Part shown: positions 16,195 to 52,067 of the stretch, piece after piece
Position numbering within the stretch: position 1 is the first letter of the stretch
How the letters are laid out: each line of letters begins with the position of its first letter
Assembly: GCA_030390025.1 (NCBI GenBank)
Contig: CM059432.1
Coordinates: forward strand, 5,518,001 to 5,582,000
Direction of reading: 5' to 3'
Length of the DNA: 64,000 nucleotides
From: Squalus acanthias
Taxonomy: Eukaryota
Position numbers and translations under genes: made by a program
Notes under the pieces: model-generated
Told to the model about the DNA's origin: nothing
Database searches by the model: none
What the model saw: only the letters and a program-made list of their open reading frames with translations

Positions 16195-16612
16195 AGACCA
16201 TAACCTCTGCCCCTACCTTTTATTTCCCTTTACTTCCCCCATTTTTTTTCTCTCTCTCACATGTCGATCATTCTGCCATCGCCATTCTGCCATCTTTTGT
16301 TTCTTAACTTGTCCCATTACCATCTCCTTTTGCCTCGCACCATCATCCCTTTTGTCTGTTAATCTCTCCTGCCTTCCACCCTATCACAGACCTTCCCTTT
16401 TGCTCTTTCCTCCCCTCCCCCCTTTTCCTGCCCCTGCACTTGCTTAAAAACCTGTTCCATCTCCAGCTTTTTCCAGTTCTGATGAAAGGTCATCGACCTG
16501 AAACATTAACACTGTTTCTCTCTCCACAGATGCTGCCTGACCTGCTGAGTGTTTCCAGCATTTCCTGTTTTTATTTCAGATTTCCAGCATCCGCAGTATT
16601 TTGCTTTTGTAG
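16195..16612 (+). mobile_element. Solo 3' end of Penelope-like family A
   Basis: Near-identical to about 27810-28188, including the hammerhead core. Confidence 0.85.
16476..16510 (+). ncRNA. Minimal hammerhead ribozyme core (helix III mutated)
   Basis: GTT CTGATGA A AGGTC-ATC-GACCT GAAA CATT AAC. Confidence 0.7.
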
Positions 16613-18615
16613 CAATGTTGTGATTTACTTAAGTCCAGTATTTTGAAAGGCTTGTGATACTTACAAGAAAGTAAATGATCTGTCTAAAAATACACAGAAA
16701 TATCTCAGTTCACCCCATTGATGAAGAAGTTAATCATAGCAAATAATCATTGTACATGACTCGCATGGTATCCACAACTCTTGGTAAACATTTCTCAAAT
16801 GGAACCCATTTTATGTTTCCAAATTCTACTATAGAATTCTGTAACACAAACAAAAGATATGAACTTATTTTCCATATTTACAGATTAAATACAATAATTA
16901 AATACAAAAATTAAATAAATACAAATACACTCCAGGCTCTGCAAGGGGGAAAACTTACCTGGTCCCCAACGGCAGCTGCGATCTGGCCCGATCAGCCCGA
17001 TGCACTGCAGCAGAGTGCCGGGCTGATCGAGCGCTGGCGAAGACAAATGGACAAAAAAAAAAGAGAACGAGCATTTGAGATTTTTTTTCCACTTACCTCG
17101 GCCGCCTGGCCTTTAAGTCTCGCCCCCGAAGCGCCCGGCCTCCCGATCAGCGCCTCCCGCAGCTGCCGGTGTTGTCGCCCGGCAATGCTGCGGGGGGGGG
17201 GCCGGAACCGAAGTTCGGGTCCGGGGCGCTAGCGGGGCGATGCGCACGGCGATGACGTCACGATCGCCGGGCGAAGGAGATCGGGGGCGCAACGCCGTGC
17301 CGCCGCCGCAAACCTCCCGCCGAATGTAGCGGGAGTCGATCTTCTCGCCGCGCCCGGGCGGTAAGTGCTCAGCGCCCCGTCAGCGCCCCATCAGCGCCCC
17401 GTTAGCGCCCCCGGAGGCGATAATGGGAGGTGCTATGATGCCCAATTTCTAGCCCACTGTTTAAAAGTAAGCCAAGTCACAGAAAGTAGTTGGCTCAGTT
17501 GGTAGCACCCTCTCCTGTAGCAAATCCAGAAGGTTGTGGGTTCAAGTCCCACTCCAGAGACTTGAGTACAAAATCTAGGCTGATGCTCCCGTGCAGGGCT
17601 GACGGAGTGCCGCACTGTCGGAGGTGACGTCTTTTGGATGAGATGTTGAACTGAGGCCCCGTCTGACCTCTCAGGTGGATATAAAAGATCCCACGGCACT
17701 ATTTCAAAGAAGAGCAGGGGAGTTATCCCTGGTCTCTTGGCCAATATTTATCCCTCAATCAACATCACTAAACAGATGATCTGGTCATAATCACATTGTG
17801 ATCTTGCTGTGCGCAAATTGGCTGCTGAGTTTCCTACATTACAACAGCGACTACACTTCAAAAAGTACTTCATTGGCTGTAAAGCACTTTGGGACGTCCT
17901 GAGGTCGTGAAAGGTGCTGTAGAAATGCAAGTCTGTCTTTAAATTAGATTTGAGAAATGATTACGTAAAGATCCAACTCTGCAACCAGCAGTTAGGAATG
18001 AATAAGCCTTTTTAAGTTTGCTGGCCCAGATCAATTTGGCTTTCAATACAATACAGATGCATCAAACTCACGACCATTCAATTCTAGCCAATCAGTACCC
18101 CTTAGCCCAAAACTACAGTCATTACCATTAACTTATTGAGCCCTCTTACCCTCAGTATAAGTTGCTAGGGCTAACCCCAGAGTCCACTTAACATTGGTTT
18201 AATACAATTTAGGTACATTCATTACTAAGAACAACGTTTCTTAATCAAAAAATATATGTAATGCGCAGGTTTAATTATGCAGGATGTTTCATAGATTCAT
18301 ACAGCTCAGAAGGAGACCATTCGGCCCATCGTGTCTGTGCCGGCTCTTTGAAAGAGCTCTCCAATTACTCCCACTCCCCCCTGCTCTTTCCCCATAGCCC
18401 TGTACATTTTTCCTTTTTAAGTATTTATCCAATTCCCTTTTGAAAGTTACCATTGAATCTGCTTCCACCGCCCTTTCAGGCAGCGCATTCCAGATCGTAA
18501 CAACTCGCTGTGGTAAAAAAACAACTCATCGTCTCCACCCTCTGGTTCTTTTGCCACGTGTGTTTATCTTAAGCATTGTACTGACGGTAAACCATTCTCT
18601 TTTTACTGTTTATAG

Positions 18616-18738
18616 ATACAGACCTTTGTGGAGTGATTGGCCACGGATGTGAGCAGATCTGTATTAACAAGCCAGGATCTTACATTTGTAAATGTAAAGA
18701 AGGATTCATCCTAAATGCTGATCAGAAAACTTGCAGAA
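18616..18738 (+). CDS. MATN2: Matrilin-2 coding exon 3, EGF-like repeat 1
   Basis: tttatag acceptor and GTAAGG donor; 123 nt, phase 1-1. [40 protein letters not shown] has 6 Cys. Not in the supplied ORF track. Confidence 0.93.
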
Positions 18739-18987
18739 GTAAGGCGGGTTTATGTTTCAATTTAAATCTCTTTGATGGTTTGAATAGAAACTACGTTGAC
18801 GCCACTTGAAGTTCTCGTGGTCCTCATGAATGTTCGAGAAGGTTCAGAGCTGATCTGAAAATGTTTTGAGGGAATAGCTTAGTGTGCGCAGCACCTGTGG
18901 TGAGTTAGGACTAGAAATTCTCTGCCTGCACACAAATTGGCTGACCTTGCATTCTAATGAGGGGTTTGGATCGAGTAGATAGGGAGA

Positions 18988-20078
18988 CGCTGAGCTTCCG
19001 ATTCCATGTCGGCCCCATCGCCCAGACCACCTACATCCACCTCCGTAACATTGCCCGTCTCCGCCCCTACCTCAGCTCATCTGCTGCTGAAACCCTCATC
19101 CATGCCTTCGTTACCTCTAGAAACATAGAAACATAGGAGCAGGAGTCGGCCATTCGGCCCTTCGAGCCTGCTCCGCCATTCAATATGATCATGGCTGATC
19201 CTCTATCTCAATACCATATCCCCGCTCTCTCCCCATACCCCTTGATGCCTTTTGTGTCTAGAAATCTATCTAACTCCTTCTTAAATATATTCAGTGACTT
19301 GACCTCCACAGCCTTCTGTGGTAGAGAATTCCACAGGTTCACCACCCTCTGAGTGAAGAAATTTCTCCTCATCTCAGTCCTAAATGTCCTACCCCGTATC
19401 CTGAGACTGTGACTCCTCGTTCTAGACCCCCCAGCCAGGGGAAACATCCTCCCTGCATCCAGTCTGTCTCGCCCTGTCAGAATTTTATTCGTTTCAATGA
19501 GATCCCCTCTCATTCTTCTAAACTCTAGTGAATACAGGCCGAGTCGACCCACTCGACTGTTCCAAAGCTCTCCTGGCTGGCCTCCCACCTTGCACATCCA
19601 AACTCTCTTGCCCGTGACCTGACTCGCACCAAGTCCCGTTCACCCATCACCCCCTGAGCTCGCTGACCTACATTGGCTCCCAGTCCGGCAACGCCTCGAT
19701 TTTAAAATTCTCATCCTTGTTTTCAAATCGTTCCATGGCCTCGTCCCTCCCTATCTCTGTAACCTCCTCCACCCCTACAACCCTCCGAGATCTCTGCGCT
19801 CCTCCAATTCTGGCCTCTTGCTCACCCCCGATTTCTATCGATCCACCATTAGTGGCTGTGCCTTCAGCTGCCTTGGCCCCTAAGCTCTGGAATTCCCTTC
19901 CTGAACCTCTCCGCCTCTCTCTCCTCTTTTAAGGTGTTCCTTAAAATTTTTGGTCATCTGTCCTAATATCTCCTTATGTGGCTCGTGTCAAATTTTGTTT
20001 GATTACGCTCCTGTGAAGCACCTTGGGCCATTTTACTACTTTAAAGGTGCTATATAAATGCAAGTTGTGTTGTTGTTG
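18988..20078 (+). mobile_element. L2 LINE 3' part with a nested antisense CR1 (about 19120-19550)
   Basis: Encodes ETLIHAFVTSR..., SPITP.LADLHWL..RQRLDFKIL and ends in a (GTT)n tail. Other L2 pieces lie at about 1-145, 620-1075, 11140-11570 and 30340-30750. Confidence 0.85.
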
Positions 20079-20082
20079 ACAG

Positions 20083-20205
20083 AGATTGACCACTGCGCTC
20101 TTGGAAACCATGGCTGTGAGCACGAATGTGCCAACACGGAAACCTCCTATATCTGCCGATGTCATACAGGACACACACTGAATCCAGACAAGAAGACGTG
20201 TCGAC
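20083..20205 (+). CDS. MATN2: Matrilin-2 coding exon 4, EGF-like repeat 2
   Basis: gacag acceptor and GTAAGT donor; 123 nt. [40 protein letters not shown]. Confidence 0.93.
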
Positions 20206-21149
20206 GTAAGTGTCCGTCCGGGCGTTTACCTTTTCCTAAGAATTTAACTTGTTTCATCTGTATTTTTTCCTCGGTGCTGTAGGATTCCCATGTCTTTATA
20301 TGGTGAGCTGTATCGGACATCTATTTTGTCTCTCACTTTTCTTCTGAGAATGAATCTGGAACTCTCGTCTCCCAAAAGCTGTTGAGGCGAGGTCAAGTGA
20401 TAGAATTTTGTTGAGGCAAGGGTTACGGAACCAAGGCGGGTAAATGGAGTTGAGAGACAGATCAGCCGTGATCTCGTTATAGTGTCAGCCGTGGCTCAGT
20501 GGGCAGCACTCTCGCCTCGGAGTCAGAAGGTCGCGGGCTCAAGAGACTTGCGCACAAAAATCTAGGCTGACACTCCAGTGCAGTACTGAGGGAGCGCTGC
20601 ACTGTCAGAGGTGCCGTCTTTTGGATGAAACTTTAAACCGAGGCCCGGTCTGTCCTCTCAGGTGGACGTAAAAGATCCCACGGCCACTATTTTGAAGAAG
20701 CACAGGGGAATTATCCCCATTGTCCTGGGCCAATATTTATCCCTCAATCAACATCACTAAAAGCAGATTATCTGGTCATTATCACACAGCTGTTTGTGGG
20801 AGCTTGCTGTGCGCAAATTGGCTGCCTGTGTTTCCTACATTACAACAGTGACTATGCTTCAAAAAGTACTTCATTGGCTGTAAAGCGCTTTGGGACGTCC
20901 AGCGGTTGTGAAAGGCGCTATAGAAATGCAAGATATTCTTTCTTTCATTGAATGGCGGAACAGGCTCAAGGGGCTGAATGGCCTCCTCCTGTTCCTATGG
21001 CGTGTGTGAAAAATGTTGTTACTGATGTAACTATTTCTGAAATAACTGAGGTTCAGGCTGCAGGGCAGTGGTTTCTTCAAGCACACTGGCACTGGGCTGG
21101 GTTTTATCGGTTCTTAGCTCAGGTCCTCGGTAGTGTGGAGCACTACATA

Positions 21150-22240
21150 AGTAAGCTCCCCGCTGGAGTGGTGCTAATTTACAGAACAAACGGGAAACTG
21201 TTCAACCTCCGTCACCTCCAGTCCAGATCCAAGGTCGTCCCATCCTCTGTCGTCGAATTACAGTATGCAGACGACGCTTGCGTCTGCGCTCACTCGGAGG
21301 TCGAACTCCAAACCATCGTCAACAACTTCACCGAAGCGTACGAGAGCATGGGCCTTACACTAAACATCCGTAAGACAAAGGTCCTCTACCAACCTGCCTC
21401 CGCCACACAGTACTGCCCCCCGATTATCAAAATCCACGACAAGGCCTTGGACAACGTGGACCACTTTCCATACCTCGGGAGCCTACTGTCAACAAGGGCA
21501 GACGTTGATGATGAAGTCCAACACCGCCTTCAGTGGGCCAGTGCAGCCTTCGGTCGCCTGAGGAAGAAAGTGTTTGAAGACCAGGACCTCAAACCTGGCA
21601 CTAAGCTCATGGTCTACAGAGCAGCAGTGATACCCGCCCTCCTGTATGCCTCAGAGACATGGGACATGGACCATGTACAGCAGGTACATCAAAGCACTGG
21701 AGAGGTACCACCAACGCTGCCTCCGCAAGATCCTGCAAATCCATTGGCAGGATAGGCGCACCAACGTCAGCGTTCTTGCTCAGGCCAACATCCCCAGCAT
21801 CGAAGCTTTGACCACGCTTGATCAGCTCCGATGGACGGGCCACATCATCCGCATGCCCGATACAAGACTCCCAAAACAAGCGCTCTACTCGGAGCTCCAA
21901 CAAGGCAAGAGAGCCCCAGGTGGGCAGAGGAAACGCTTCAAGGACACCCTCAAAGTCTCTTGAAAAAGTGCAACATCCCCACCGACACCTGGGAATCCCT
22001 GGCCCAAGACCGCACAAAGTGGAGGAGAAACATCCGGGAAGGTGCCGAACGCCTCGAGTCTCTTCGCCGGGAGCAAGCGGAAGCCAAGCGCAAACAGCGG
22101 AAGGAGCGCACGTCAACCCAAGCACCCCACCCACCCGCCCCTTCAACCACCGTCTGCCCCATCTGTGACAGAGACTGTAGGTCCCACATTGGACTCATCA
22201 GTCACCTGAGAACTCATTTTTAGTGTGGAAGCAAGTCATC
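21150..22240 (+). mobile_element. RTE-clade LINE 3' part
   Basis: Encodes YRTNGKLFNLR..LQYADD, FPYLGS, QLRWTGH..RM...RLPKQ and a C-terminal CPICDRDC..HIGLISHLRTH zinc finger. It is frameshifted. Confidence 0.9.
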
Positions 22241-24673
22241 CTCGGTTCCGAGGGACTGCCTAAGAAGAAGATGATAATGGAGGTAGCTGTCCCTCACTTC
22301 ACCACAAGTGCACGTCCTAGTCGCAAAGCGGCAGTGGCCGCTGTCATCACCTGGAATGGTCTAAGTGAACAAGCCAATGCAGCGATGAGAGGCTCTGTGA
22401 AACATTAATGAAGAGGGGCAATGAAGAAATCAAAGCTAACAGATCGTGAGGTTAACAACACAGTTCAAACTCCAGATTGATAGTCAGCACAGATATAGGA
22501 ACATAGGAACAGGAGGAGGCCATTCAGCCCCTCGAGCCTGTCCCGCCATTCAATGAGCTCAGGGCTGATCTGTATCTGTGATTTTTTTTTTAATATAGAT
22601 TTTCTCATTGTGTGGGTGACGCTGATAAGGCCACATTTATTGTCCATCCCTAGTTGCCCTGAGAGGTGGTGGTGGACCTTCTCCTTGAGCTGCTGCAGTC
22701 CTTGTGGTGATGATGCTTCCCCCAATGCTGTTAGGTAGGGAATTCCAGGATATTGGCCCAGCAACATTGAAAGAACGATGATACATGTCCAAGTCAGGAT
22801 GGCGTGGGACCTGGTGGGGAACTTTCAGGTGATAGTGTTCCCACTATATTGCTCCTCTTGTCCTTACATAGATAGTTACATAGTATTTACAGCACAGAAA
22901 CAGGCAATTCAGCCCAACAGGTCCGTGCCGGTGTTTATGCTCCACACGAGCCTCCTCCCACCCTATTTCATCTCACCCTCTCAGCATATCCTTCTATTCC
23001 TTTCTCCCTCATGTGTTTATCTAGCTTCCCCTTAAATGCATCTATGCTATTTGCCTCAATTATTCCATGTGGTAGCGAGTTCCACATTCTAACCATATTG
23101 GATTTATTACTGACTGTCTTATATTTGTGGCCCCTAGTTCTGGTCTCCCCCGCAAGGGGAAACATCTTCTCTGCATTCTTTCTTGGTGGTAGAGATCACA
23201 TGGGAGGAAGGTACCATCAAAATAACCCTGGGGAATTGCTGTAGGTTTTTTTTTATTTGTTTTTATGGGATGTGGGCGATCGCTGGTAAGGCCAGCATTT
23301 ATTGCCCATCCCTAATTGTCCTTGAGAAGGTGGTGGTGAGCCGCCTTCTTGAACCGCTGCAGTCCGTGTGGTGAAGGTGCTCCCACAGTGCTGTTAGGGA
23401 GGGAGTTCCAGGATTTTGACCCAGCGACGATGAAGGATCGGCGATATACTTCTAAGTCAGGATGGTGTGTGACTTGGAGGGGAACTTGGAGGTGGTGGTG
23501 TTCCCATGCGCCTGCTGCCCTTGTCCTTCTAGGTGGAAGAAGTCGCGAGTTTGGGAGGTGCTGCCGAAGAAGCCTTGGCGAGTTGCTGCAGTGCATCTTG
23601 TAGATGGTACACACTGCAGCCACGGTATGCCGGTGGTGGAGGGAGTGGATGTTTAAGGTGGTAGAGGGGGTGCCAATCAAATGGGCTGCTTTGTCCTGGA
23701 TGGTGTCGAGCTTCTTGAGTGTTGTTGAAGCTGCGCTCATCCAGGCAAGTGGAGAGAATTCCATCACACTCCTTACTTGTGCCTTATAGATGGTAGAAAG
23801 GCTTTGGGGAGTCAGGAGGTGAGACACTCGCCGCAGAATACCTAGCCTCTGACCTGCTCTTGTTGCCACAGTATTTATGTGGCTAGTCCAGTTAAGTTTC
23901 TGGTCAATGGTGGTTGTATATACTGCAGCCACAGTGCACCGATGATGGATGGATATTGAGCTCAGTGGCAAGGGCACTGATCAAGCGAACTGCTCTGGTC
24001 TGGATGGTGTTGAACTATGAGTGTTGCTGTGACTGCACCCAGCCAAATGAGTGATGAGCTTTCCATTACCCGCCTGGCCTGAGCTTTGTAGATGGTGCAG
24101 AGACTTTGTTGGGTTAGGAAATGAGCCACTCTTCGCAGAGTACCCAGCCTCTTCCCTGCTCTTGTAGTCGGTGTTGATAAAGCTGCTCCATTTAAGCTTC
24201 TGGTCAATGTTGACTCCCAAAGATGGTGGGGAGACTGGGCAAAGGTGGTGACATTGAAGGTCAGGGGAGATGGTTGGGCTTTCTCTTGTTTCAGATGTTC
24301 ATTACCAGACACTTGTGTGGCATGAGGGTAACCTGCCACTTGTCAACCCAATCCTGGGTGTTATTCAGGTCCTGCTGTAGGTTGGCCTGGGCTGATTCCT
24401 CAGAAACAGTCAACTGGTCTGACAGTTATGAGATCTTGAACACATCCTAGGAGACAATTACAAAGCAGAGGCACAGAAATAGATTGCTTGTCCAGTATCT
24501 TTCAAGAGGCAACCCAAAAAAATGGTGAAAGCAAGTCATTAGAGAGAATAGGTTGCCCAATTTTTTTTTAAAGAAGTGCTACTTTTATCCCTCGCCCTCC
24601 ATTCTATTGAGTAGATTGGGCCTATACTCTCTGGAGTTTAGAAGAATGAGAGGTGATCTCATTGAAACATTAA

Positions 24674-25544
24674 GGCCGCGATTTTGTCATTGGATGCAGC
24701 TTGGGAGCGGGTCAGCTGGTTTCCGGGTTCCAGTCCCGCCCCCAACTGCATCCGGCCAACGGACGTGATTTTACGTCGATTGACCTTGTTAACCCCGCCC
24801 TGCGGTCTTATCGGCCAATTAAGAGGAAGCCGGTCAGATGACATCATTTGATGCCGCGTCATCTGCCGGTTTTCTTAAAGGGACCACGCACCAATTTTTT
24901 TTGACAGCTCATTTCTCAGTGTTTGACAGCATTGAGGTGCTGCAAACACTGACAATCGCTGTACAAAGGTGAGCTCTTGCACCCAGGCTCTCCAGTAACT
25001 CCCTCCTTAGGCTAGAACAGATGGCAGCTGCAGGTGAGGTTACAGAAGCGATCTGTCACTGGTGAGAGAGGTTCTCCCAATGAGGTGGGACTAGACATCC
25101 AAATCAAAACTTGTTACCTACAGAAAAGAGTAAATACATTAAAAATGATTTTCCTAACATTTTACCTCTGAAACTCACCAGTGCACCATTGGATCTTCAC
25201 ACCACTTCTGCAGCTGTCATCAATGCAGAAACATTACAGCAGACTCACAGCACGCCACACTTACCTGGCGTGGTGTCCGGATGTCGGGAAACCTGAGGCA
25301 GAAGCGGCAAAATTGAAAAAGAGCCTGTTAACAAGTATCAAGTACCTGTTAACAGGAAGGTAAGTGGCTTTAATCCTCTTCCCGCCACTAGGTGTCGGGT
25401 CCATGTTCAAATCGGGGACCCGACACTTGGGAGATTGATTGGAGGCGGGTTGACAGCGGGTTTCCTGCCCGCTGTCAATCTTTGCGATTTTGACAGCGGT
25501 CCCGCCTCCAAACCCGCCCCCTGAGCGCCGGCAAAATTCCGGCC
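24674..25544. mobile_element. PIF/Harbinger-type non-autonomous element inside a CR1
   Basis: Ends are GGCCGCGATTTTG / CAAAATTCCGGCC with TAA-like flanks. An internal piece resembles the start of the Myb gene near 54250. Confidence 0.7.
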
Positions 25545-26435
25545 ATAAGATTCTGAGGGTGATTGACAGGGTAGATGCTGAGAGGTTGTTTCCGCTGACT
25601 GGAGAGTCTCGAACTAGGGGCATAGTCTCAGGATAAGGGGTCGGCCATTTAGGACTGAGGAGGAATTTCTTCACTCAGAGGGTTGTGAATCCTTGGAATT
25701 CTCTTCCCCAGAGGGCTGTGGATGCTGAATCGTTGAGTATATTCAAGGCTGAGATCGATAGATTTTTGGACTCTAGGGGAATCAAGGGATATGGGGATCG
25801 GGCGGGAAAGTGGAGTTGAGGTCGAAGATCAGCCATGATCTTATTGAATGGCGGAGCAGGCTCGAGGGGCCCAATGGCCGACTCCTGCTCCGAATTCTTA
25901 CGTTCTAATGGCCCCCCATATCATGCACTCACATCTCTCTCTCCTCCCTTAAGATGCTCATTAAGACCTACCTCTTTGACCAAGCTTTTAGTTACCTTTT
26001 AGTCCTAATATCTCCTTTTTTGGCTCCATGAAAATTTTTGTCTGATTACTCTCCTGTGAAAGGCGCAGTATAAATGTAGGTTATTGATTGCCAATTTATG
26101 GACAGTTTTGTACTGTGAACCCACATCCACTGGGAGCAAGGTAGAAAAAAAAAACAAGCCTTACATTTGAAAAGTGCTCATTATGTGAGTTACGCAACTT
26201 ACCTGTTGATTGTTACAGGCAAACACAGCCACTCATTTGCATATATACAAATCCCACAAACAGCAATGAAATGAACAATCATTCTGTTTTGAACATTATT
26301 TGTGCCGGTCCTACTCTGGTCCCCTCCCTCCCCCTCTTTTTCCGGTACATCGATGACTGTATCGGTGCCGTTTCCTGCTCTCGCCCTGAACTAGAAAATT
26401 TCATTCACTTTGCTTTCAATTTCCACCCTTCCCTC

Positions 26436-26730
26436 ACCTTCACATGGTCCATCTCCGACTCTTCCCTTCCCTTCCCTCACCTTCACACGGTCCATCTCCG
26501 ACTCTTCCCTTCCCTTCCTCACCTTCACACGGTCCATCTCCGACTCTTCCCTTCCCTTCCTCACCTTCACACGGTCCATCTCCGACTCTTCCCTTCCCTT
26601 CCTCACCTTCACACGGTCCATCTCCGACTCTTCCCTCCCCTTCCTCACCTTCACACGGTCCATCTCTGACTCTTCCCTTCCCTTCCTCACCTTCACATGG
26701 TCCATCTCCGACTCTTCCCTCCCCTTCCTC
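26436..26730 (+). repeat. 42-bp minisatellite, 7 copies, inside the Penelope RT
   Basis: Unit ACCTTCACACGGTCCATCTCCGACTCTTCCCTTCCCTTCCTC (TFTRSISDSSLPFL). The span is 295 nt = 7x42+1. Confidence 0.95.
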
Positions 26731-28062
26731 GACTTCTCTGTCTCCATCTCTGGGGATAGGCTAATGACCAACATTCACTATAAGCCCACTGACTCCCACA
26801 GCTACCTGGACTACACTTCCTCCCACCCCGCTTCCTGTAAGGACTCTATTCCATTCTCCCAGTTTCTCTGTCTCCGTCGTATCTGTTCTGACGATGCCAC
26901 CTTCCATATTAGTGCTTCCAATATGTCTTCCTTTTTCTTCAACCGAATATTCCACTCTACTGTGGCTGACACGGCCCTCAACCGTGTCCATTCCATTTCC
27001 CCGCACTTCTGCTCTCACCCCTTCCCCTCCCTCCCAGAACCACGATCGGGTTCCCCTTGTCCTCACCTTTCACCCCACCAGCCTCCACATTCAATGAATC
27101 ATCCTGCGCCATTTCCACCACCTCCAGCGTGATCTCACCACCAAACATATCTTCCCCTCACCTCCCCTTTCAGCATTCCGAAGGGACTGCTCCCTCTGCG
27201 ATACCCTGGTCCACTCCTCAATCACCCCCTAACAGCACTGTGGGAGTACCATCACCACACGGACCGCAGCGGTTCAAGGAGGCGGCTCACCACCACCTTC
27301 TCAAGGGCAACTAGCGATGGGCAATAAATGCTGGCCTTGCCAGCGATGCCCACATCCCATGAACGAATTAAAAAAAACCTCCACTTTGCTCGGCACCTTA
27401 CCGTGCAAGTGCAGGAGATGCAACACCTGCCCTTTTACCTCCTCCCTTCCCACTGTCCAGGGCCCCAAACACTCCTTCCAGGTGAAACAGCGATTTACTT
27501 GTACTTCTTGCAATTTAGTATACTGTACTCGCTGCTCACGATGTGGTCTCCTCTACATTGGGGAGACCAAACGCAGATTGGGTGACCACTTTGCGGAACA
27601 CCTCCGTTCAGTCCTTAAGCGTGACCCCGAGCTTCCGGTCGCCTGTCTCTTTAATTCTCCGCTCCACTCCCACTCTGACCTCTCTGTCCTCTGCCTCCTA
27701 CACTGTTCCAACGAAGCTCAACGTAAGCTCGAGGAACAGCACCTCATCTTTCGATTAGGCACTTACAGTCTTCTGGACTCAACATCGAGTTCGACAATTT
27801 CAGACTGTAACCTCTGCCCCTATGTTTTCACATGGCAGCTGTCGATGATTCTGCCATTGCAATTTACACCTCCTCTAGACCCATCTTTTGTTTCTTTACT
27901 TGTCCCATTACCATCTCCTTTTGCCTCGCACCATCATCCCTTTTGTCATTAATCTCTCCTGCCTTCCACCCTATCACAGACCTTCCCTTTTGTTCTTTCC
28001 TCCCTCCCCGCTTTCCCTGCCCCTGCACTTGCTTAAAATCTGTTATATCTCCAACTTTTTCC

Positions 28063-28099
28063 AGTTCTGACGAAGGGTCATCGACCTGAAACATTAACT
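28063..28099 (+). ncRNA. Minimal hammerhead ribozyme core (helix III mutated)
   Basis: AGTT CTGACGA A GGGTC-ATC-GACCT GAAA CATT AACT. Confidence 0.7.
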
Positions 28100-28709
28100 C
28101 TCCACAGATGCTGCCTGACCTGCTGAGCGTTTCCAGCATTTTCTGTTCTTATTTCAGATTTCCAGCATCGGCAGTATTTTGCTTTTGAACCATTCTGTTT
28201 TGTTGGTTTTAGTTGAGGGCAGAATGTCAGGGCACCAGGAGATCTCCCAGCTCTGCCGCAGAGGATCTTTAATGCCGAGCTGAAGAGGCAGGTTGGGCCT
28301 CGGCTTAACGTCTCAACGTCTCAGCCAATAGGCAGCAAGTCTGACAAGGCAACACTCCTTGGACCATTGCAGTGGGGTCCTTGAACGCCCAAATCCGGGC
28401 ACATCTCTCCCGCAACTCCATGTTTCAGCCTCTCCAATCCGGGGTCCACCCCTGCCACAGCACTGAAACAGCCATGTAAAAGTCACAAGTGATATCCTGT
28501 GACTGTGGTGCACTATCCCTCCCGACCTGTCTGCAGCCGTTGTCACGGGTGACCACACAATCCTCCTCCAATACCTCTCCTCCGTCATCCAGCTGGGTGG
28601 GACTGCCCGCGCCTGCTTCCATTCTTGTCTATCCTGTCGTAGCCAGAGAATTTCCTGCAATGGCTTCTCTTCCTGCTCCTGCTCCATTGTCTCTGGTGTC
28701 CCCCGAGGA

Positions 28710-29500
28710 TAGAAACATAGAAGATAGGAGCAGGAGTAGGCCATTCGGCCCCTCGAGCCTGCTCCGCCATTTAATGAGATCATGGCTGATCATCCAAATT
28801 CAGTACCCTGTCCCTGCCTTCTCCCCATATCCCTTGATCCCTTTAGCCTTAAGAAATATATCTAACTCCTTCTTGAATATATTTAATGAATTGGACTCAA
28901 CTGTCATCTGTGGTAGAGAATTCCACAGGTTCACCACTCTCTGGGTGAAGAAATTCCTCCTCATCTCAGTCCTAAATGGCTTACCCCTTATCCTTAGACT
29001 GTGACCTCTGGTTCTGGACTCCCCCGCCATCGGGAACATCCTTCCTGCATCTAGTCTGTCTAGTCCTGTTAGAATTTTATAAGTTTCAATGAGATCCCCT
29101 CTCATTCTTCGAAACTCTAGCGAATACAAGCCTAATCGACCCAATCTCTCTTCATACGTCATTCCTGCCATCCCAGGTATCAGTCTGGTGAATCTTCGCT
29201 GCACTCCCTCCATGGCAAGAACATCCTTCCTCAGATAAGGCGACCAAAACTGCACACAATACTCAAGGTGTGGTCTCACCAAGGCCCTGTACAACTGCAG
29301 CAAGACATCCTTGCTCCTGTACTCGAATCCTCTCGCTATGAAGGCCAACATACCATTTGCCTTCTTAACCGCCTGCTGCACCTGCATGCTTACCTTCAGC
29401 GACTGGTGCACAAGGACACCCAGGTCTCGTTGCACTTCCCCTTTTCCCAATCTATTGCCGTTCAGATAATAATCTGCCTTCCTGTTTTTGACACCAAAGT
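28710..29500 (-). mobile_element. CR1 LINE 3' fragment
   Basis: ORF 28800-29450 encodes the CR1 RT C-terminus, followed by the 3' UTR and tail. Confidence 0.9.
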
Positions 29501-29570
29501 GGATATCCTTGGCCTCCTCCTATTTCTCATCTATTCGCTGCACCTCGGCGACATCATCCGAAAACACAAT

Positions 29571-34650: not shown

Positions 34651-34764
34651 ATTACATAGAACTTGCAGCACAGAAAACAGGAAATTCAGCCCAACTCACT
34701 GGAGTAGGGAATTGCAGTCTAAATCCACGTCCTAAAACGTCAAGTCATCCCATACTGCTTTTCT

Positions 34765-39363: not shown

Positions 39364-39600
39364 CATGGAGAGAACTGAAAAGAAGGATGGGAGTTTAAAA
39401 AATCGAACAAGCCGAGTCCAGGCACCTCCTCACAGGAAGGGGAGGGTAAACGAACAAGCCAGTCACCGGGGACTGTTAGTGCAACTCCTGAGAGTTGCAG
39501 CAATAGCAGTGCCGGCTTCCCACACGATACCATGGGACACAGAAGGCAAAGTGAAACAAAATACAGAAAATGTAACATACTCATGAAACTGTCTCAACAG

Positions 39601-39753
39601 GTATCAACATATATGCTGTTGGGGTTGGCAAGGCGATTGAAGAAGAATTACAACAAATTGCTTCATTTCCACAAGACGAACACTTGTATTACGCAAAGGA
39701 CTTCAGGACCATGGGCGAAATTGCTGAAAAACTGAAAGCACAGATTTGCAAAG
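39601..39753 (+). CDS. MATN2: Matrilin-2 coding exon 7, vWA2 C-terminal part
   Basis: tcaacag acceptor and G|GTACTT donor; 153 nt. [51 protein letters not shown]. Confidence 0.93.
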
Positions 39754-39951
39754 GTACTTCGAGTAACATGCACTGTAATCCCTGCTGGAATTCATACAAG
39801 TAACATCAGGACTTGAAAAGCATAATTCCTGCCGCAGGCAAAGTGGGAAGAACATTAGAGGGAGTACGAACCGTGTCTCTAATCAGCTGGAGTCTAGCAA
39901 GTAACTCTTTATCCATTTACATTCGCTTTTGTTCTTTCCGATGAACAGAAT

Positions 39952-40591
39952 GGGCCTGAATTTGCGGTCGGAGGCAGATGCCTCTGAACCGCAATAAATC
40001 TACGCACTTACCCAATGGTCCCTGATCCACGGAGACTCGCGCTCCTGGGCCTCTACGCCCAACCAATCAGAGAGAGGGATTCCCATTATGCTTATGGGAG
40101 ATTCCATTTACGCACGGAATCCCCATAAGCATATTAGGAATCCCCTAAAAAAACATGTACACAACATTGAAATAAAGAAAAATCATTACATGTTTAAAAT
40201 GAATTGAAATACAATTTAATTAAACATTTAAAACAAAAATTTATAAAATAAATGTAAACATTTTTCAAGGGGCCAAAAATAACACAAACTTATTTTACAG
40301 GTTTTTGAATTTTGGAAGTGATTTAAAACATTTAATTTTAATATTTATTTTCACCCTTACGCTGGTAAACGAAGGCCCGACGCCTGCTTTTACCAGGCGT
40401 AAGAGTTTCACGGGCACTCGCTGGGCAAGAGTTGGGCAAATCTCTCGGCCAGCGGATGTCCATTTCCCGGGGATGCGGAGGATCTGCCGAGAAGATTCTT
40501 GACAGGATGCAAGCTCTGGGTTTTCGCGCATGCCTGAAACCCAGAACCTGCGAGGTGCGTACGCGGTCCTAGGCCCCGGGAAATCCGGGTC
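39952..40591. mobile_element. Harbinger-type MITE
   Basis: Begins GGGCCTGAATTTGCGGTCGGAGGC and ends AAATCCGGGTC. It is related to 29571-30336 and to about 60417-60960. Confidence 0.6.
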
Positions 40592-41623
40592 TATGTGTTT
40601 CTGTTGTAATTGGTTGTAAATTTAAGGTTTAAAAAATAAACCTGGAAGGGAGAGGAATTTGCAGTTTAAAGTCGTGGTGAGAATGTGGTACCAGCTGCCA
40701 CATGGAATGGTTGAAGCAGACAGCATTGATGCACTGGGGTGATTTGATAGAGATTATGACAGGTTTGGATAGGCTAGATGGGGAAAGGCTGTTCCCACTA
40801 GTTGATGGTACAAGGACTAGGGGATACAGATTTAAGGTTTTGGGCAAGAGATACAGGGGGGGACATGAGGAAAAACTTTTTTACGCAGCGAGTGGTGAGG
40901 ACCTGGAACTCGCTGCCGACGGAAGTGGTGGAAGCGGAGACACTCGATGTTTTCAAGGGGAGACTGGATAGGCACTTGAGGGAAATAAATTTGCAGGGCT
41001 ACGGGGATAGAGCGGGGGAGTGGGACTGACTGGATTGCTCTACAGAGAGCCAGCATGGACTCGATGGGCCAAATGGCCTCCTTCTGTGCCGTCATGACTC
41101 TATGGCTTAAGCAGGGGTTTGATGCATACATGAGGGAGCAGGGAATAGAGGGATACAGAGGCGGGATTGGAAGAGGTAATTAGAGTGGGAGGAGACTAGC
41201 GTGGAGCATCAACGCCGGCATAGACCAGCTGGGCTGAATGGTCCTGTTTCCATGCTTCAGATTCTATGTAATTGGAGGAAGGAAGTGTTTAGCCCTGATG
41301 GTCCGGCCATCGTGGTGTGGGGCAGGCTTGATGGACCGACTGGTCTTTTCCTGCCCGCCCATCAATTTCTCATGTAATTCCACGTATATGAAATTCTACG
41401 ACAAGTACGGCTTGGGTCAGTGAAAGGCGAAAGGAAATGTGGCCGGAACTTCCCAATCTCAGCAGGGCATAGAAAGCAGAGCCAATGAAAAGGACAACTG
41501 GGCAAAGGTGTATAACGGGCGGTTGATCCGTCACCGCTTGATTTCTGCCCCTGCAGAAGTTGCAAGATCCGCCCGATGAACCATCTACACACGAGCTAAT
41601 ACACGTATATTAATTGTTTACAG

Positions 41624-41716
41624 GAAATCCGTCACTTGGGGATCAATGCAAGTGTGAAGCAGTTGTGTCATTCCAGATTCATGCTGATGAAGAAATACAA
41701 AGATTAACCCATAAAT
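41624..41716 (+). CDS. MATN2: Matrilin-2 coding exon 8, CxC motif and start of the coiled coil
   Basis: tttacag acceptor. It encodes GNPSLGDQCKCEAVVSFQIHADEEIQRLTHK and ends at the U12 donor ATATCCTTT. Confidence 0.9.
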
Positions 41717-42437
41717 ATATCCTTTCGATGTATCGTGCAACAGTATTTGGTTGATTTTCGATTTTCTTCTCCGCCGCAGTGAAATACAATCACTTATATT
41801 TATTCTGCATGTACAGATTTCTTTCAAATTGTTTTATAGACATTTTGGTCGCAACGGGCATCACAGTAGAGGAACAGAGGGACCTTGGTGTGCATGTCCA
41901 CAGATCCCTGAAGGTAGCAGGACAGGTAGATAAGGTGGTTAAGACGGCATACAGGATACTTGCCTTTATTAGCCGAGGCATAGAATATAAGAGCAGGGGG
42001 GTTATGCTTGAACTGTACAAAACACTAGTTCGGCCACAGCTTGAGTACTGTGTGCAGTTCTGGTCACCACATTACAGGAAGGATGTGATTGCACTAGAGG
42101 GGGTACAGAGGAGATTTACGAGGATGTTGCCAGGACTGGGGAATTTTAGCTATGAGGAAAGATTGGATAGGCTGGGGCTGTTTTCTTTGGAACAGAGGAG
42201 GCTGAGGGGAGATTTAATTGAGGTGCATAAAATTATGAGGGACCTAGATAGAGTGGGTAGGAAGGACCTATTTCCCTTAGCAGAGAGGCCAATAACCAGG
42301 GGGCATAGATTTAAAGTAATTGGTAGAAGGATTAGAGGGGAGTTGAGGAGAATATTTTTCACTCAGAGGGTGGTGGGGGTCTGGAACTCACTGCCTGAAA
42401 GGGTGGTAGAGGCAGAAACCCTCATCACATTTAAGTA

Positions 42438-42966
42438 TGATGCGGAGATGCCGGCGTTGGACTAGGGTGGACAAAAATGAGAAGTCGCACAACACCAGGT
42501 TATAGTCCAACAGATTTATTTAAAATTACAAGCTTTCGGAGCTGTCGCCCCTTCGTCAGGCAAAGTTACTGTGAGAGAATCTATCAGAATTCACAGAATA
42601 TAAAAACACAGAGAAAATGCATAGATTAAATCTTTCCCTACATCAAAGACACACTAAGAGCACAGCCAAGACAATGAGATGTGTCCCAGGGGGGTCCAAC
42701 GCGTCAGAACACCTGCTGGCTGCATATCCTCTCCATTTTTTGTGTTTGTTTCTTGTGGTTTTTTTTAAAAAACTGGAACGACCGGCAACGATGTCAAGTC
42801 ACGTTCTATAGCATGACATGAACCCGATATCCCGATTGAGGCCGTCCTCATGAGTGCGGAACTTGGCTATCAGTTTCTGCTCGATGATTTTGCGTTGTCG
42901 TGTATCACGAAGGCCGCCTTGGAGAACGCTAACCCGCAGATCCGAGGCTGAATGTCCTTGACTGCT
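42438..42966 (-). mobile_element. Short Penelope-like element (family B), 5'-truncated
   Basis: The reverse complement matches the GIY-YIG C-terminus (..EQKLIAKFRTHEDGLNRD..) and the terminal ~130 nt of 50842-52067. A TSD TTTAAGTA lies at 42430-42437 and 42967-42974. Confidence 0.88.
42526..42563 (-). ncRNA. Minimal hammerhead ribozyme core
   Basis: The - strand reads TTGC CTGACGA A GGGGC-GACA-GCTCC GAAA GCTT GTAA. Confidence 0.8.
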
Positions 42967-44033
42967 TTTAAGTAAGTAGTACTTGGATATGCACTTGAAG
43001 TGCCGTAACCTCCAGGGCCACGGACCAAGAGCTGGAAAGTGGAATTAGGCTGGACAGCTCTTTGTCGGCCGGCACGGACAAGATGGGCCGAATGGCCTCC
43101 TTCTGCGCTGTGAACTTCTATGATTCTATGAACTGCTCCATTAAAATGAATCAATGTATTCCTCAATCTATCCGGTGATTTCTATAACATGTATTTAAAA
43201 TTCATCTGAGCAACAGGTTCATACAAACTTGATGGTGTAGGAAAAGACCTGCTGGCCCATCAAGCCTGCCCCACACCATGGCTGGAGCATTGTGACCAGA
43301 CACTTCATACCTTCCCCCCGCCCCATTAATTAAATTTTACACCATCCAAATGCAACCTACCCCACCAGCCCAGTTCCCAGCTGAGGGTATTTTCGATCTG
43401 TTCTCAGACCTGTGCCAATAGTAGGTATGTGTGGTAATGCATAATAAAAACTGTCCAATGTAGAATCATAGAACGATTACAGCACAGGAGGAGGCCACTC
43501 GGCCCGTCGAGCCCGTGCCGGCTCTCTGCAAGAGCACTTCAGCTAGTCCCACTCCCCCCCCCTTTCCCCGCAGCCCTGCAAATTTATTTCCTTCAAGTAC
43601 TTATCCAACTCCCTTTTGAAAGCCACGATTGAATCTGCCTCCACCACCCTCGCAGGCGGTGCATTCCAGATCATAATCACTCGCTGCGTAAAAAAGTTTT
43701 TCCTGATGTTGCCTTTGGTTCTTCTGTCGATCACCTTAAATCTGTCTCCTCTGGTTCTCGACCCTTCCACCAATGGGAACAGTTTCTCTCCATCTACTCT
43801 GTCCAGACCCCTCAGAATTTTGAACACCTCATGTAGGGGGAAACGGTATGATTCCTGGGATGAGGGCTGTCCTGTGAGGAGAAATGGAGTAGAATGGGCA
43901 GACATTGTTTAGAAGAATGAGAGGTGATCTCATTGAAATGTGTAAAATTCTTAGAGGGCGTGACAGGGTAGATGCTGAGATATTGTTTCCCATGGATGGA
44001 GTGTCTAGTCATAGTTTCAGGATAAGGGGTTAC

Positions 44034-44465
44034 ATAGAAACATAGAAACATAGAATCTAGGAGCAGGAGTAGGCCATTCGGCCCGTCGAGCCTGCTCCAC
44101 CATTCAATACGATCATGGCTGATCATCCAAATCCAGCACCCTGTCCCTGCTTTAATCCCCACAGTACACATATCCCACCCTACCCCCGTAACCCCACGTA
44201 TTTAATTCCCCCTAACATATCCCATCCTATCCCCATAACCCCACATATTTAATCCCCCCCTAACACTAAGGGTCAATTTTATCATAGCCAAATCAACCTA
44301 ACCCGCACATTTTTGGACTGTGGGAGGAAACCGGAGCACCCGGAGGAAACCCACGCAGACACGGGGAGAATGTGCAAACTCCACACAGACAGTCACCCGA
44401 GGTCAGATTCGAACCCGGGTCCCTGGTGCTGTGAGGCACCAGTGCTAACCACTATGCCACCGTGT
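44034..44465 (-). mobile_element. HE1-like V-SINE
   Basis: tRNA head (GGTTCGAATC), V-domain GTGTGGAGTTTGCACATTCTCCCCGTGTCTGCGTGGGTTTCCTCCGGGTGCTCCGGTTTCCTCCCACAGTCC and a CR1-type tail. Confidence 0.8.
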
Positions 44466-44929
44466 TGGCCATTTAGGACTGAGATGAGAGAAATTTCTTC
44501 ACTGAGGGTTGTGAATCTTTGGAATTCTCTACCACAGAGGGCTGTGGATGCTCAGTCATTGAGTGTATTCAAGACTGAGATAGATAGATTTTTGGACTCT
44601 AGGGGAATCATGGGCTATGGGGATCGGGCGGGAAAGTGGAGTTGAGGTCGAAGATCAGCCATGATCTTATTGAATGGCGGAGCAGGCTCGAGGGGCCGTA
44701 TGCTACTTCTTATGTTCTTATGAATCCACAGCAACATTAACTTTCTATTTACCCGTTTAACTACAATCGAGATCAAAACATGGCCTCAAATGTAGAAATT
44801 TAAATGCGTTTGCTAACCCTGAAATTGTTGAAGCAATTTATACAAGTCCACTGTATTTGATCATTGCAGATAAAAAAGGTAACCAGCAAGTGTCAGCATT
44901 TTAACTTTGAGTTCCTTAACTAGAACCAC

Positions 44930-44985
44930 TGGATGAAGTGATGAACAGGCTGAAGATTGTGGAGAACTATTTCAAAGCCAAGTAG
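44930..44985 (+). CDS. MATN2: Matrilin-2 last coding exon, end of the coiled coil
   Basis: Follows the AC acceptor and encodes (L)DEVMNRLKIVENYFKAK* with TAG at 44983-44985. It resembles the matrilin C-terminal heptad segment. Confidence 0.9.
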
Positions 44986-45272: not shown

Positions 45273-45920
45273 AGTGCCTGAGAGTTCATACTTTAAGTTC
45301 AATATACCCAGTAAGAACTCACCCACTTCTAGTTCCATCACAGATCCTTTTAAGGGCAGGAAATGCTGGAAATACTCAGCAGGTCAGGCAGCACCTGTGG
45401 AGAGAGCAACAGAGTTAACGTTTCGGGTCGAACCGCCCAGTTCTGATTCCTGGGATGGCAGGACTGTCGTATGAGGAGAGATTGGGTCGACTCGGCCTGT
45501 ATTCACTAGAGTTTAGAAGAATGAGGGGGGGATCTCGTGGAAACGTATAAAATTGTGACAGGGCGAGACAGACTGGATGCAGGGAGGATGTTTCCCCTGG
45601 CTGGTGGGGCCTAGAACGAGGGGTCACAGTCTCAGGATACGGGGTAGGACATTTAGGACTGAGATGAGGAGAAATTTCTTCACCCAGCGAGTGGTGAACC
45701 TGTGGAATTCTCTACCACAGAAGGCTGTGGAGGCCAAGTCACTGAATATATTTAAGAAGGAGATAGATAGGTTTCTAGACACAAAAGGCATCAAGGGATA
45801 TGGGGAGAGAGCGGGAATATGGTATTGAGATAGAGGATCAGCCATGATCATATTGAATGGCGGAGCAGGCTCGAAGGGCCGAATGGCCGACTCCTGCTCC
45901 TATTTTTCCCTGTTTTCTAT

Positions 45921-45955
45921 GTTCTGACGAAAGGTCACCGACCTGAAACGTTAAC
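45921..45955 (+). ncRNA. Minimal hammerhead ribozyme core
   Basis: GTT CTGACGA A AGGTC-ACC-GACCT GAAA CGTT AAC. Confidence 0.8.
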
Positions 45956-50300: not shown

Positions 50301-50841
50301 CATACCTCCTACGTTCATATCTAAATCATGAATGTACACTACAAACAGCAAAGGACCCAGCACCAATCCCTGCGGTACACCACTGGACACAGGCTTCCAG
50401 TCACAAAAACAACCTTCGACCATCACCCTCTGCCTCCTGCCACTAAGCCAATTTTGGATCCAATGTGCCAAGTTGCCCTGGATCCCATGGGCTTTTACCT
50501 TCTTGACCAGTCTCCCATGCGGGACTTTGTCAAAAGCCTTACTGAAGTCCATGTAGACTACATCAACTGCACTACCCTCATCCACACACCGTCACCCCCT
50601 CAAAAAATTCAATCAAATTGGTTAGACATGATCTCCCCCTGACAAAGCTATGCTGACTATCCTTGATTAATCCTTGCCTCTCCAAGTGGAGACTAATTCT
50701 GTCCCTCAGAATTTTTTCCAATAATTTCCCTACCACTGATGTTAGGCTCACTGGCCTGTAATTCCCTGGTTTATCCCTACTACCCTTCTTGAATAATGGT
50801 ACTACGTTAGCTGTTCTCCAGTCCTCTGGCACCTCCCCTGT

Positions 50842-52067
50842 AAGAACTCGCCCTCGTAAGAACGGGATATGATGCTCGACTCATCGATCGACAGTTCCGA
50901 CGGGCCACAGCGAAAAATCGCATAGACCTCCTCAGAAGGCAAACACGGGACACAACCAACAGGGTACCCTACGTCGTCCAGTACTTCCCCGGAGCGGAGA
51001 AACTACGCCATGTTCTTCGCAGCCTTCAACATGTCATCGATGACGACAAACACCTCGCTAAGGCCATCCCCACGCCTCCACTACTTGCCTTCAAACAGCC
51101 GCCTAACCTCAGAAGTACCATCGTTCGCAGCAAATTACCCAGCTTTCAGGATAACAGCGACCACGACACCACACAACCCTGCCATGGCAAACTCTGCAAG
51201 ACATGCCAGATCATCAACACAGATACCACCATCACACGTGAGGACACTACCCACCAGGTACATGGTACATACTCATGTGACTCGGCCAACGTTGTCTACC
51301 TCATACGTTGCAGGAAAGAATGCACCGCGGCATGGTACATCGGCGAGACCATGCAGACACTGAGACAACGTATGAACGAGCACCGCGCAACAATCGCCAG
51401 GCAGGATTGTTACCTCCCAGTCGGGGAACACTTCAGCAGTCAAGGACATTCAGCCTCGGATCTGCGGGTAAGCGTTCTCCAAGGCAACCTTAGAAACACA
51501 CGACAACGCAAAATCATCGAGCAGAAACTGATAGCCAAGTTCCGCACTCATGAAGACGGTCTCAATCGGGATCTTGGGTTTATGTCACGATACATGACGT
51601 GATCCGGACTCGAGTCGTCGTTAGCTTGTTCACAGATGTGATTCCCAGTAAAAAAGTAAAAATTTTCCCAGTAAAAAAGTAAATTTTTTTTAAAGCTTTT
51701 CGTTTTACATACAGACGGCAGCTTTTGACACGTTAGAACCCCTGCGACTACACCTCATTGTCTCAGTTGTATCTTGCTATGTCTTTTGATGTGGTACCTT
51801 CCTGGCTGACTTAATTAACTTTATCACACCTCGGCAGATAGTCAGGATGATTTAATTTATTGGTCTGCAATTGTAAAGTACACATGCTTTGTTTTCTATC
51901 TATATATGCTCTGGCGATTCTGTATCCAATTTACTTCACCTGAGGAAGGAGCAATTGATAGCTCCGAAAGCTTGTGATTTCAAATAAAACTGTTGGACTA
52001 TAACCTGGTGTTGTGCGACCTCTCAATTTTGTCCACCCCAGTCCAACACCGGCATCTCCGCATCATG
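50842..52067 (+). mobile_element. Penelope-like element (family B), 5'-truncated, with GIY-YIG endonuclease and a hammerhead in its 3' repeat
   Basis: Encodes CHGKLCKTCQII...NVVYLIRCRKEC..AWYIGETMQTLRQRMNEH. An 11-bp TSD ACCTCCCCTGT lies at 50831-50841 and 52068-52078. Confidence 0.9.
51936..51977 (+). ncRNA. Minimal hammerhead ribozyme core
   Basis: TCAC CTGAGGA A GGAGC-AATTGATA-GCTCC GAAA GCTT GTGA. Confidence 0.82.

Follow-up and report, generated by a model that had tools for sequence, protein, structure and literature searches.

The five motifs found in the window (the whole 64,000-nucleotide stretch of Squalus acanthias DNA analysed) are probably minimal type I hammerheads residing in the pseudo-LTR (pLTR) of two endonuclease-bearing Penelope-like element (PLE) families, A and B, the five copies themselves being likely inert by-products of retrotransposition. 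The arrangement is already described in the accessible part of Cervera & de la Peña 2014 (PMC4209133), and A and B are two further families of a known ribozyme class.

All five hammerheads reported in the earlier note were recovered by a structure descriptor run over the whole window. Their coordinates in Table 1 follow that note and are the outer helix I ends of each motif; C3 of CUGANGA falls at 16479+, 28067+, 42559-, 45924+ and 51940+. The five have a common layout of CUGANGA, an extra A, a 5-bp helix II, GAAA-NN-UU and a helix I of 3-4 bp (only 3 bp at 16479 and 45924), so that the minimal core with helices I and II was found in every one; the extra A is also present in all 11 motifs of a 600-kb genome sample. 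Helix II of family A is AGGUC/GACCU at 16479, GGGUC/GACCU at 28067 and AGGUC/GACCU at 45924 (closing pairs A-U, G·U and A-U), and that of family B is GGGGC/GCUCC at 42559 and GGAGC/GCUCC at 51940. Both families, and three of the five window copies, have no real helix III and a palindromic 15.1-16.1, the tetranucleotide being ACGU or AGCU in these three and ACAU at 16479 and 28067. The Rfam scan returned no hammerhead match at E<=5, so none lay above the gathering threshold.

Table 1. Hammerhead motifs, Penelope-like copies and matrilin exons in the window.
Feature	Position	Strand	Remarks
Family A copy, 5'-truncated	16196..16612	+	3' UTR, hammerhead, tail; 15-bp target duplication at 16181 and 16613
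Family A hammerhead motif	16476..16510	+	predicted cut after 16507; helix I 3 bp; helix III ACAU, palindrome broken; sense, matrilin intron
Family A copy, 1.9 kb, 5'-truncated	26292..28187	+	RT end; GIY-YIG end 27392-27810; 12-bp target duplication at 26280 and 28191
Family A hammerhead motif	28063..28099	+	predicted cut after 28095; closing pair G·U; helix III ACAU, palindrome broken; sense, matrilin intron
Family B copy, 5'-truncated	42437..42966	-	last 55 endonuclease codons, 3' UTR, hammerhead, tail; 8-bp target duplication
Family B hammerhead motif, GUAA helix I subfamily	42526..42563	-	predicted minus-strand cut after 42530; AGCU intact
Inverted tail-less partner of the 45921 copy	45351..45431	-	truncated inside helix II; sixth, partial motif
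Family A hammerhead motif	45921..45955	+	predicted cut after 45952; ACGU intact; helix I 3 bp
Family B copy, 1.2 kb, very young	50844..52067	+	99% identity to full-length units; 11-bp target duplication at 50831 and 52068
Family B hammerhead motif	51936..51977	+	predicted cut after 51973; AGCU intact; helix I 4 bp
Family B tail-only fragment	63384..63418	-	without hammerhead
Matrilin exons found	15290, 18615, 20082, 31040, 35616, 39597, ~41624, 44930	+	context 15290..44985

Each motif lies in the 3' pLTR of a 5'-truncated Penelope-like element, with target duplications of 8-15 bp at all five insertions. The attribution to two Penelope-like families was borne out by GIY-YIG ends directly upstream of three of the five motifs and by full or long RT-EN ORFs elsewhere. 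In the 1.9-kb family A copy the RT end carries a 42-bp tandem expansion (26423-26800), and a dispersed repeat is inserted at about 27229-27383. The 45921 copy and its inverted partner have a common 9-bp target duplication (45348 and 46063); helix I of this copy was shortened by a later LINE insertion (7-bp duplication GTTCTGA, 45440 and 45921), and the motif lies downstream of both the stop codon and the first AATAAA of matrilin. The motif at 42526..42563 is antisense in the last matrilin intron, which is of the U12 type. The very young family B copy comprises the RT thumb, a CX4CxxC linker, a GIY-YIG endonuclease (frame 50844-51602), 3' UTR, hammerhead and tail; its motif, the best preserved of all, has the stop codon of matrilin on one side and the RPL30-like exons found on the other.

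The proteins of families A and B are about 34% identical. The intact family B element is a unit of 3138-3142 nt with one hammerhead and a single 892-aa ORF in which an RT (DKG, YxDD) is followed at the C-terminus by an endonuclease of the GIY-YIG type; the predicted cut is 91 nt before the ATG, where the tail ends. Domain scores were E 3e-8 for RVT_1 and E 3e-4 and 0.015 for GIY-YIG, the latter two under the Pfam cut-off, and Atlas neighbours (0.98) carry RVT_1 and GIY-YIG. Family B is very young, as most of the best 150 matches are identical over 250 residues and several tandem arrays are intact. Family A has an open frame of 741 aa, and no full-length intact ORF was seen among 10 loci. The layout of tandem pLTRs, inverted 5' copies and a one-sided tail of 30-40 nt is that of endonuclease-bearing PLEs, with the hammerhead located in the pLTR. 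Weak further evidence is that the hammerhead-tail region is alike in the run of one other organism, in which the 3' UTR is uncovered. Both families contain the CX4CxxC linker between RT and endonuclease, which is absent from Penelope/Poseidon; judged from this Cys linker, their placement would be of the Neptune or Nematis type. They resemble Neptune/Nematis elements, as described in the part available of Craig et al. (bioRxiv 2021.04.23.441226), in the DKG motif, the C-terminal GIY-YIG, the CX2-5CxxC linker, the inverted 5' copies and the one-sided tail, but the microsatellite targeting of those elements was not observed in 42 family B target sites. Reading these 42 sites by eye, after a suspicion raised by reused LINE sites, also revealed no clear target motif beyond A/T richness.

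The motifs match the published minimal, dimer-type hammerhead class of PLEs, as the earlier note had supposed. Like the motifs in the accessible part of PMC4209133, they show the core, an extra nucleotide after position 9, a 4-bp helix I, a palindromic 15.2-16.2, location in pLTRs, mostly solo truncated copies, close pairs on opposite strands and covariation between subfamilies. They differ in a helix II of 5 bp rather than the 7-8 bp of schistosome motifs, and in a closing pair that in family A is mostly A-U or G·U instead of the published G10.1-C11.1. The hosts named there include fish Xena, Poseidon and Neptune elements, coelacanth (~4,000) and Xenopus (~9,000); copy number here is about 10-20 times higher, although the search methods differ, and no shark is named in that part of the paper. 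A literature search for a shark-specific account of PLE hammerheads was without result, the nearest being one chondrichthyan genome screened for retrozymes. The non-LTR retrozymes reported from that genome (bioRxiv 10.64898/2026.07.22.740005, part available) likewise have type I hammerheads related to those of PLE pLTRs, but they consist of short tandem repeats that are non-coding and carry a hammerhead in every unit, whereas the copies in the window stand singly and are truncated ends of coding elements. A retrozyme identity was rejected, the window copies being solo with their own target duplications and the tandem units examined being 3.1-kb coding elements. Repbase, Dfam or the supplements of papers may already list both families.

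Covariation had been read from a comparison between the two families, which is unable to show it; within each family, however, pair counts over genome copies do reveal it, as C-G/U·G/U-A in helix I and A-U/G·U/G-C in helix II. At helix I pair 3 of family B, 148 fetched copies gave 101 C-G, 29 U-A, 12 U·G and 6 others. The genome contains 12,627 copies with the GUAA arm, with a U partner in 95 of 100 among the matches listed, and 2,330 GUGA copies with a non-C partner, of which 85 of 100 among those listed have U·G. The helix II closing pair in 91 fetched family A copies was A-U in 39, G·U in 27, G-C in 24 and other in 1. The G10.1-C11.1 pair, a typical trait of minimal hammerheads that is outside the published descriptor, occurs in 144 of 148 family B copies and in a minor set of family A (24 of 91; 1,432 pattern matches). 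These fetched copies are biased by the search patterns, which also partly fix the palindrome centre (GC in 147/148 family B copies, CG in 84/91 of family A). When pairs were counted formally over 20 distinct rows of family A chosen by hand, the outcome was only marginal, with 15-23 of 500 shuffles as high and one compensated pair. Since covariation holds within families, master elements keep the fold. The palindrome of dispersed copies seems to lose its CpG neutrally, as fast as CpGs ordinarily decay (9 of 50 helix III CpGs decayed, compared with ~13% for ORF CpGs). A strand bias of this decay (9 CA and 0 TG in 100 matches among those listed) was considered and rejected, ORF CpGs decaying evenly (6.3% and 6.9%).

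Genomic copies stop downstream of the predicted cut, at 53-63 nt in the case of the short end and at 87-96 nt in that of the tail end. Often two copies are paired in inverted orientation, one with a short and the other with a tail end, and the target duplication is about 12 bp long. Exactly one tailed end was present in 42 of 46 inverted pairs, and 34 of these 42 had duplications of 11-14 bp. The 5' ends did not pile up at the predicted cut, where 211 were counted and control positions gave 82 and 188, and 20 of 30 inspected 5' ends at the site were junctions of inverted pairs. Three full-length copies that apparently started at the cut were also discarded, their real starts being 50-70 nt upstream of it, so that none of the three checked begins there. 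Given that the 3' ends of insertions are downstream of the cut, and that no accumulation of 5' ends is seen at it, the RNA that is reverse transcribed would be continuous across the cut, either uncut or re-ligated. The endonuclease would make a staggered double-strand cut, each 3' end of which would prime reverse transcription at one of two internal sites, as demonstrated in vitro for the anole element (PMC11167929, part available). The hammerhead would be copied first, and therefore even heavily truncated insertions would tend to retain all or part of it; its position, rather than any ribozyme action, would account for the ~10^5 copies. In transcripts of master elements the motif would be under selection, probably cleaving at a slow rate as a dimer that forms through the ACGU/AGCU palindrome and is assisted by protein, and so processing tandem transcripts into unit-length RNA. 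Comparable features are found in the Poseidon-type element PAc from Anolis carolinensis (Frangieh et al. 2024, PMC11167929), which in the sections available has tandem units, two insertion ends 30-40 nt apart (the tail), a hammerhead at the pLTR-ORF junction and a template continuous across the cut; its ORF starts within stem II and its cut falls 26 nt past the ATG, whereas the family B cut precedes the ATG.

An unlikely alternative to catalysis in master elements is that they keep the hammerhead-shaped fold for another purpose, such as a protein-binding or positioning structure beside the two reverse-transcription start sites, and that it rarely or never cleaves. Cleaved templates have left no genomic trace, and helix I is weak in context, its predicted probability with flanks being 0.00-0.59 (0.00-0.13 in family A). 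The predicted cofold minimum was never the active dimer, the 4-bp helix III duplex being worth -1.7 to -2.5 kcal/mol. Position 17 is U, the slowest NUH option, in 118 of 148 family B copies. It is nevertheless U or C in all 148 and never G, the palindrome is kept in two forms, and the core letters, although partly fixed by the search patterns, are kept across families with such divergent proteins while N7 and loop II vary freely. In the accessible part of PMC4209133, minimal PLE hammerheads did not cleave as monomers and were weak as dimers; in that of PMC11167929, cleavage of the anole motif needed the protein of the element, with partial rescue by C3G/G8C, but ribozyme mutants remained able to insert in vitro, and RNA-seq showed no reads terminating at the cut. 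Naiad elements lack hammerheads and yet thrive (bioRxiv 2021.04.23.441226, part available). Assembled contigs of presumed RNA runs covered repeats only and are not informative on RNA ends or on the matrilin 3' UTR.

That dispersed copies are active self-cleaving RNAs cutting host pre-mRNAs, here that of matrilin, is very unlikely. The motif has more than 90,000 genome matches, ACGU is kept in 91 of 100 family A matches among those listed, and helices I and II of the 51940 and 42559 copies are predicted to fold well in isolation. The suggestion that gene introns have been seeded with potentially self-cleaving RNAs is nevertheless not supported in the window, where only two of the five copies are sense in (matrilin) introns; these lie in different introns, 11.6 kb apart, and both have lost the dimer palindrome by CpG decay. 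Of the others, one is antisense (42559), one has lost part of its helix I to a LINE and has an inverted partner expected to base-pair across the cut site (45924), and one is intergenic, outside the coding exons found (51940). Moreover, of the 41 family alignments in the 600-kb sample no more than 11 satisfied the descriptor, and the monomer tested in the part available of PMC4209133 did not cleave. The 51940 copy is intact and, judging from its sequence, could cleave if transcribed and paired with a partner.

The high genome-wide number proposed earlier is confirmed by 94,375 matches (the sum of four disjoint exact patterns), although straight extrapolation from the window (290,000) is about 3-fold too high, the window being denser than the genome mean (5 motifs where 1.2-1.6 are expected per 64 kb; P 0.007-0.025). 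In evenly spaced genome samples of 600 kb the descriptor found 11 matches, against 3 in total across 20 shuffles; all were assigned to family A or B and all were on the + strand, BLAST finding copies on both strands. A search for other large families, combining A/T-only palindromes with closure by G-C, revealed none (133 matches, 351 in the control). Despite the empty Rfam scan and a loose core-only pattern that is unenriched in the window (12 matches; 13 of 100 shuffles reach as many), chance matching in repeat-rich DNA has a negligible probability and is refuted by the absence of descriptor matches from each of 200 dinucleotide shuffles of the window, by reversed-pattern controls of 0 against 15,486-47,637 real-pattern matches, and by the fixed position of the motif within elements.

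It may tentatively be proposed, with the odds rather against it, that in family B hammerhead cleavage and re-ligation yield a 3.1-kb circular RNA which the RT of the element copies repeatedly into multi-unit arrays; the circular-RNA idea was already put forward in 2014. Between units of one array 0-3 letters differ (four arrays, 10 comparisons, median 0), and between loci the median difference is 19 letters (161 comparisons). The low difference within arrays and the fact that all templates run across the cut favour the proposal. In one array, however, two units have a common variant absent from the third, which a single circle does not predict, and template jumping or DNA duplication fit the arrays equally well. 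If true, family B would be a vertebrate retrotransposon of very young age that passes through a circular RNA intermediate, and the ~10^5 dated ribozyme variants would constitute a natural mutational scan. The finding gives no indication that matrilin is controlled by a ribozyme. It adds two PLE families to a described ribozyme class, and its main value is as a test system, family B being very young and having subfamilies with complete compensatory paths.

All five minimal hammerhead motifs that the earlier note had claimed for the window are present in the sequence, and a descriptor (CUGANGA with or without an extra base, a helix II of 4 bp or more, GAAA, 0-4 bases, UH and a helix I of 3 bp or more) recovers exactly those five, against 0 in 200 dinucleotide shuffles. 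The core pattern by itself is not enriched in the window and an Rfam scan of the window gave no hammerhead match; therefore the signal resides in the helices. Helix III is ACGU or AGCU, palindromes that allow a dimer, in three of the five copies and ACAU in the other two. In predicted folds of the motifs in context helix II has a probability of 0.29-0.94 and helix I of 0.00-0.59, and no cofolding model has the active dimer as its structure of lowest energy.

Hammerhead motifs, named by C3 of the core, and other features of the window
Feature	Position	Strand	Predicted cut after	Target duplication (bp)	Remarks
Motif, family A	16479	+	16507	15	
Motif, family A	28067	+	28095	12	
Motif, family B	42559	-	42530	8	cut on minus strand
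Motif, family A	45924	+	45952	9	
Motif, family B	51940	+	51973	11	
Near-full LINE	11895-14895	+			two overlapping frames with APE and RT domains
Matrilin (host gene)	15290-44985	+			VWA, three EGF, VWA, coiled coil
Tandem expansion, 42 bp	26423-26800	+			within the RT region of copy 28067
Last matrilin intron	41717-44929	+			U12 AT-AC type
Matrilin stop codon	44983-44985	+			
SNORA72	58327-58458	-			E 2e-14, in intron of RPL30-like gene
RPL30-like exons	near 62925, 61300, 58850	-			

The five motifs terminate five different insertions, each with a target duplication of its own, and in three of the five copies the end of a GIY-YIG endonuclease lies 240-340 nt upstream. Used as a genome query, this end of the 51940 copy had at least 150 matches scored at a rounded identity of 100% (61,004 candidates). 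The carriers are two families of Penelope-like elements (PLEs). Family B forms head-to-tail units of 3138-3142 nt (six fetched stretches, four arrays), each with a single hammerhead whose predicted cut is 91 nt before the ATG and with an ORF of 892 aa holding DKG, YIDD, a CX4CxxC linker and GIY-YIG. Family A, with an open frame of up to 741 aa and about 34% identity to family B, shares the linker and the downstream hammerhead; no intact full-length ORF was found among the 10 loci examined. The linker is in common with PLEs of the Neptune/Nematis type, as described in the available text of bioRxiv 2021.04.23.441226, and judged by it both families would be of this type. They add to the known class of PLE minimal hammerheads. 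A literature search limited to articles gave no description of these shark families; a retrozyme screen included one chondrichthyan genome (bioRxiv 2026.07.22.740005, in part).

The high genome-wide number expected by the earlier note was borne out by 94,375 exact matches to four non-overlapping patterns, only some of which demand helix I (47,637 + 1,432 + 32,679 + 12,627; reversed controls, in the same order, 0, 68, 0 and 0). The full descriptor gave 11 motifs in 60 evenly spaced 10-kb genome stretches, all 11 of family A or B, from which 68,000 motifs are estimated for the 3.7-Gb genome (95% interval 34,000-122,000). Motif density in the window is 3-4 times the genome average, and therefore the 290,000 scaled from it is too high. 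Covariation was found within each family, whereas the comparison between families offered for it previously cannot show it. Helix I pair 3 of family B was C-G in 101, U-A in 29, U·G in 12 and other in 6 of 148 distinct fetched copies, and the helix II closing pair of family A was A-U in 39, G·U in 27, G-C in 24 and other in 1 of 91. Where family B has the GUAA arm, the partner in pair 3 was U for 95, C for 4 and A for 1 of the first 100 copies listed of 12,627, and the GUGA arm with a non-C partner had U·G in 85 of the first 100 of 2,330. All these samples are biased by the search patterns and tally copies, not events; overall about two pairs are compensated. Any of the four letters occurs at N7, and the length of loop II is 3-9 nt. 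The formal count for family A (97.2% paired in 23 hand-picked sequences, 20 distinct) was marginal, 15-23 of 500 shuffles being as high.

Only three EGF exons were found between the two VWA domains of the host matrilin. The neighbouring RPL30-like gene, on the minus strand from about 58 kb on, would by synteny presumably make it matrilin-2, where more EGF repeats would be expected. The last intron (ATATCCTT donor, TTCCTTAAC branch point, AC acceptor), of a U12 type common to matrilins, holds several repeat insertions, the antisense family B copy 42559 among them. Copies 16479 and 28067 lie in sense in two different matrilin introns, have both lost the palindrome and show about 90% identity to their nearest fetched relatives. 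Copy 45924 lies beyond the first AATAAA (45267), with an inverted partner at 45351-45431, and a LINE insertion removed part of its helix I. Copy 51940, which is intact, falls outside the coding exons mapped in the two genes. Of 50 family A copies, 9 showed decay of the helix III CpG, vs 13% at ORF CpGs; as these rates are near each other, this comparison does not point to selection on the dispersed copies.

The fetched loci hold 46 inverted family B pairs. One end is short and the other tailed in 42 of them, and an 11-14 bp duplication accompanies 34 of these 42. In all but two of the mapped young loci the ends lie 53-63 or 87-96 nt past the predicted cut, two classes that match the two internal start sites demonstrated in vitro for the element PAc of Anolis carolinensis in the available text of PMC11167929. 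This match suggests that reverse transcription begins just 3' of the hammerhead and would then cross the cut site. Cleaved RNA as a common template would give a pile-up of 5' ends at the cut, the absence of which speaks against it: 211 copies start there vs 82 and 188 at control positions three bases to each side, and of 30 copies inspected that start at the cut 20 are inverted-pair junctions. As the motif adjoins the start sites and the pile-up is missing, the large motif count is likely a by-product of this placement. In loci L210-L238 several inverted pairs are joined at GTGA, the helix I arm, or close to the AGCT palindrome, which suggests that the two cDNAs are joined by microhomology provided by the motif. 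In addition, independent family B insertions occupy identical sites of common LINE sequences (L031/L032, L039; L042, L048; L035/L036, L049/L050), for which abundant targets or a weak preference may be the reason.

The data establish the anatomy and position of the motifs, their copy number, covariation and the ends of the insertions. Selection would act on the master elements; in these the motif probably works as a dimer with help from protein, cleaving slowly and so processing tandem transcripts. This reading draws on published tests: the available text of PMC4209133 reports that PLE minimal hammerheads failed to cleave as monomers and cleaved weakly as dimers, and that of PMC11167929 describes cleavage of the anole element as protein-dependent and dispensable for insertion in vitro. 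PMC4209133 put forward a circular RNA intermediate, which PMC6765202 reviews (both in part); for these elements it is a compatible but hypothetical step. Units within four arrays are 0-3 letters apart (10 comparisons) and those of different loci a median of 19, minimum 0 (161 comparisons); one array has a variant in two units that is absent from the third, which a single circular template would not predict. Because the family B leader is 91 nt, a role in translation start, as reported for viral type I hammerheads in the available text of PMC13725137, might be another option. In some family B subfamilies the cleavage triplet is CUC, as in 30 of the 148 copies fetched (locus L269 included), and the CUC subfamily with the U·G intermediate in helix I has about 2,000 copies. 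The CUC subfamilies are a natural comparison for cleavage rate.
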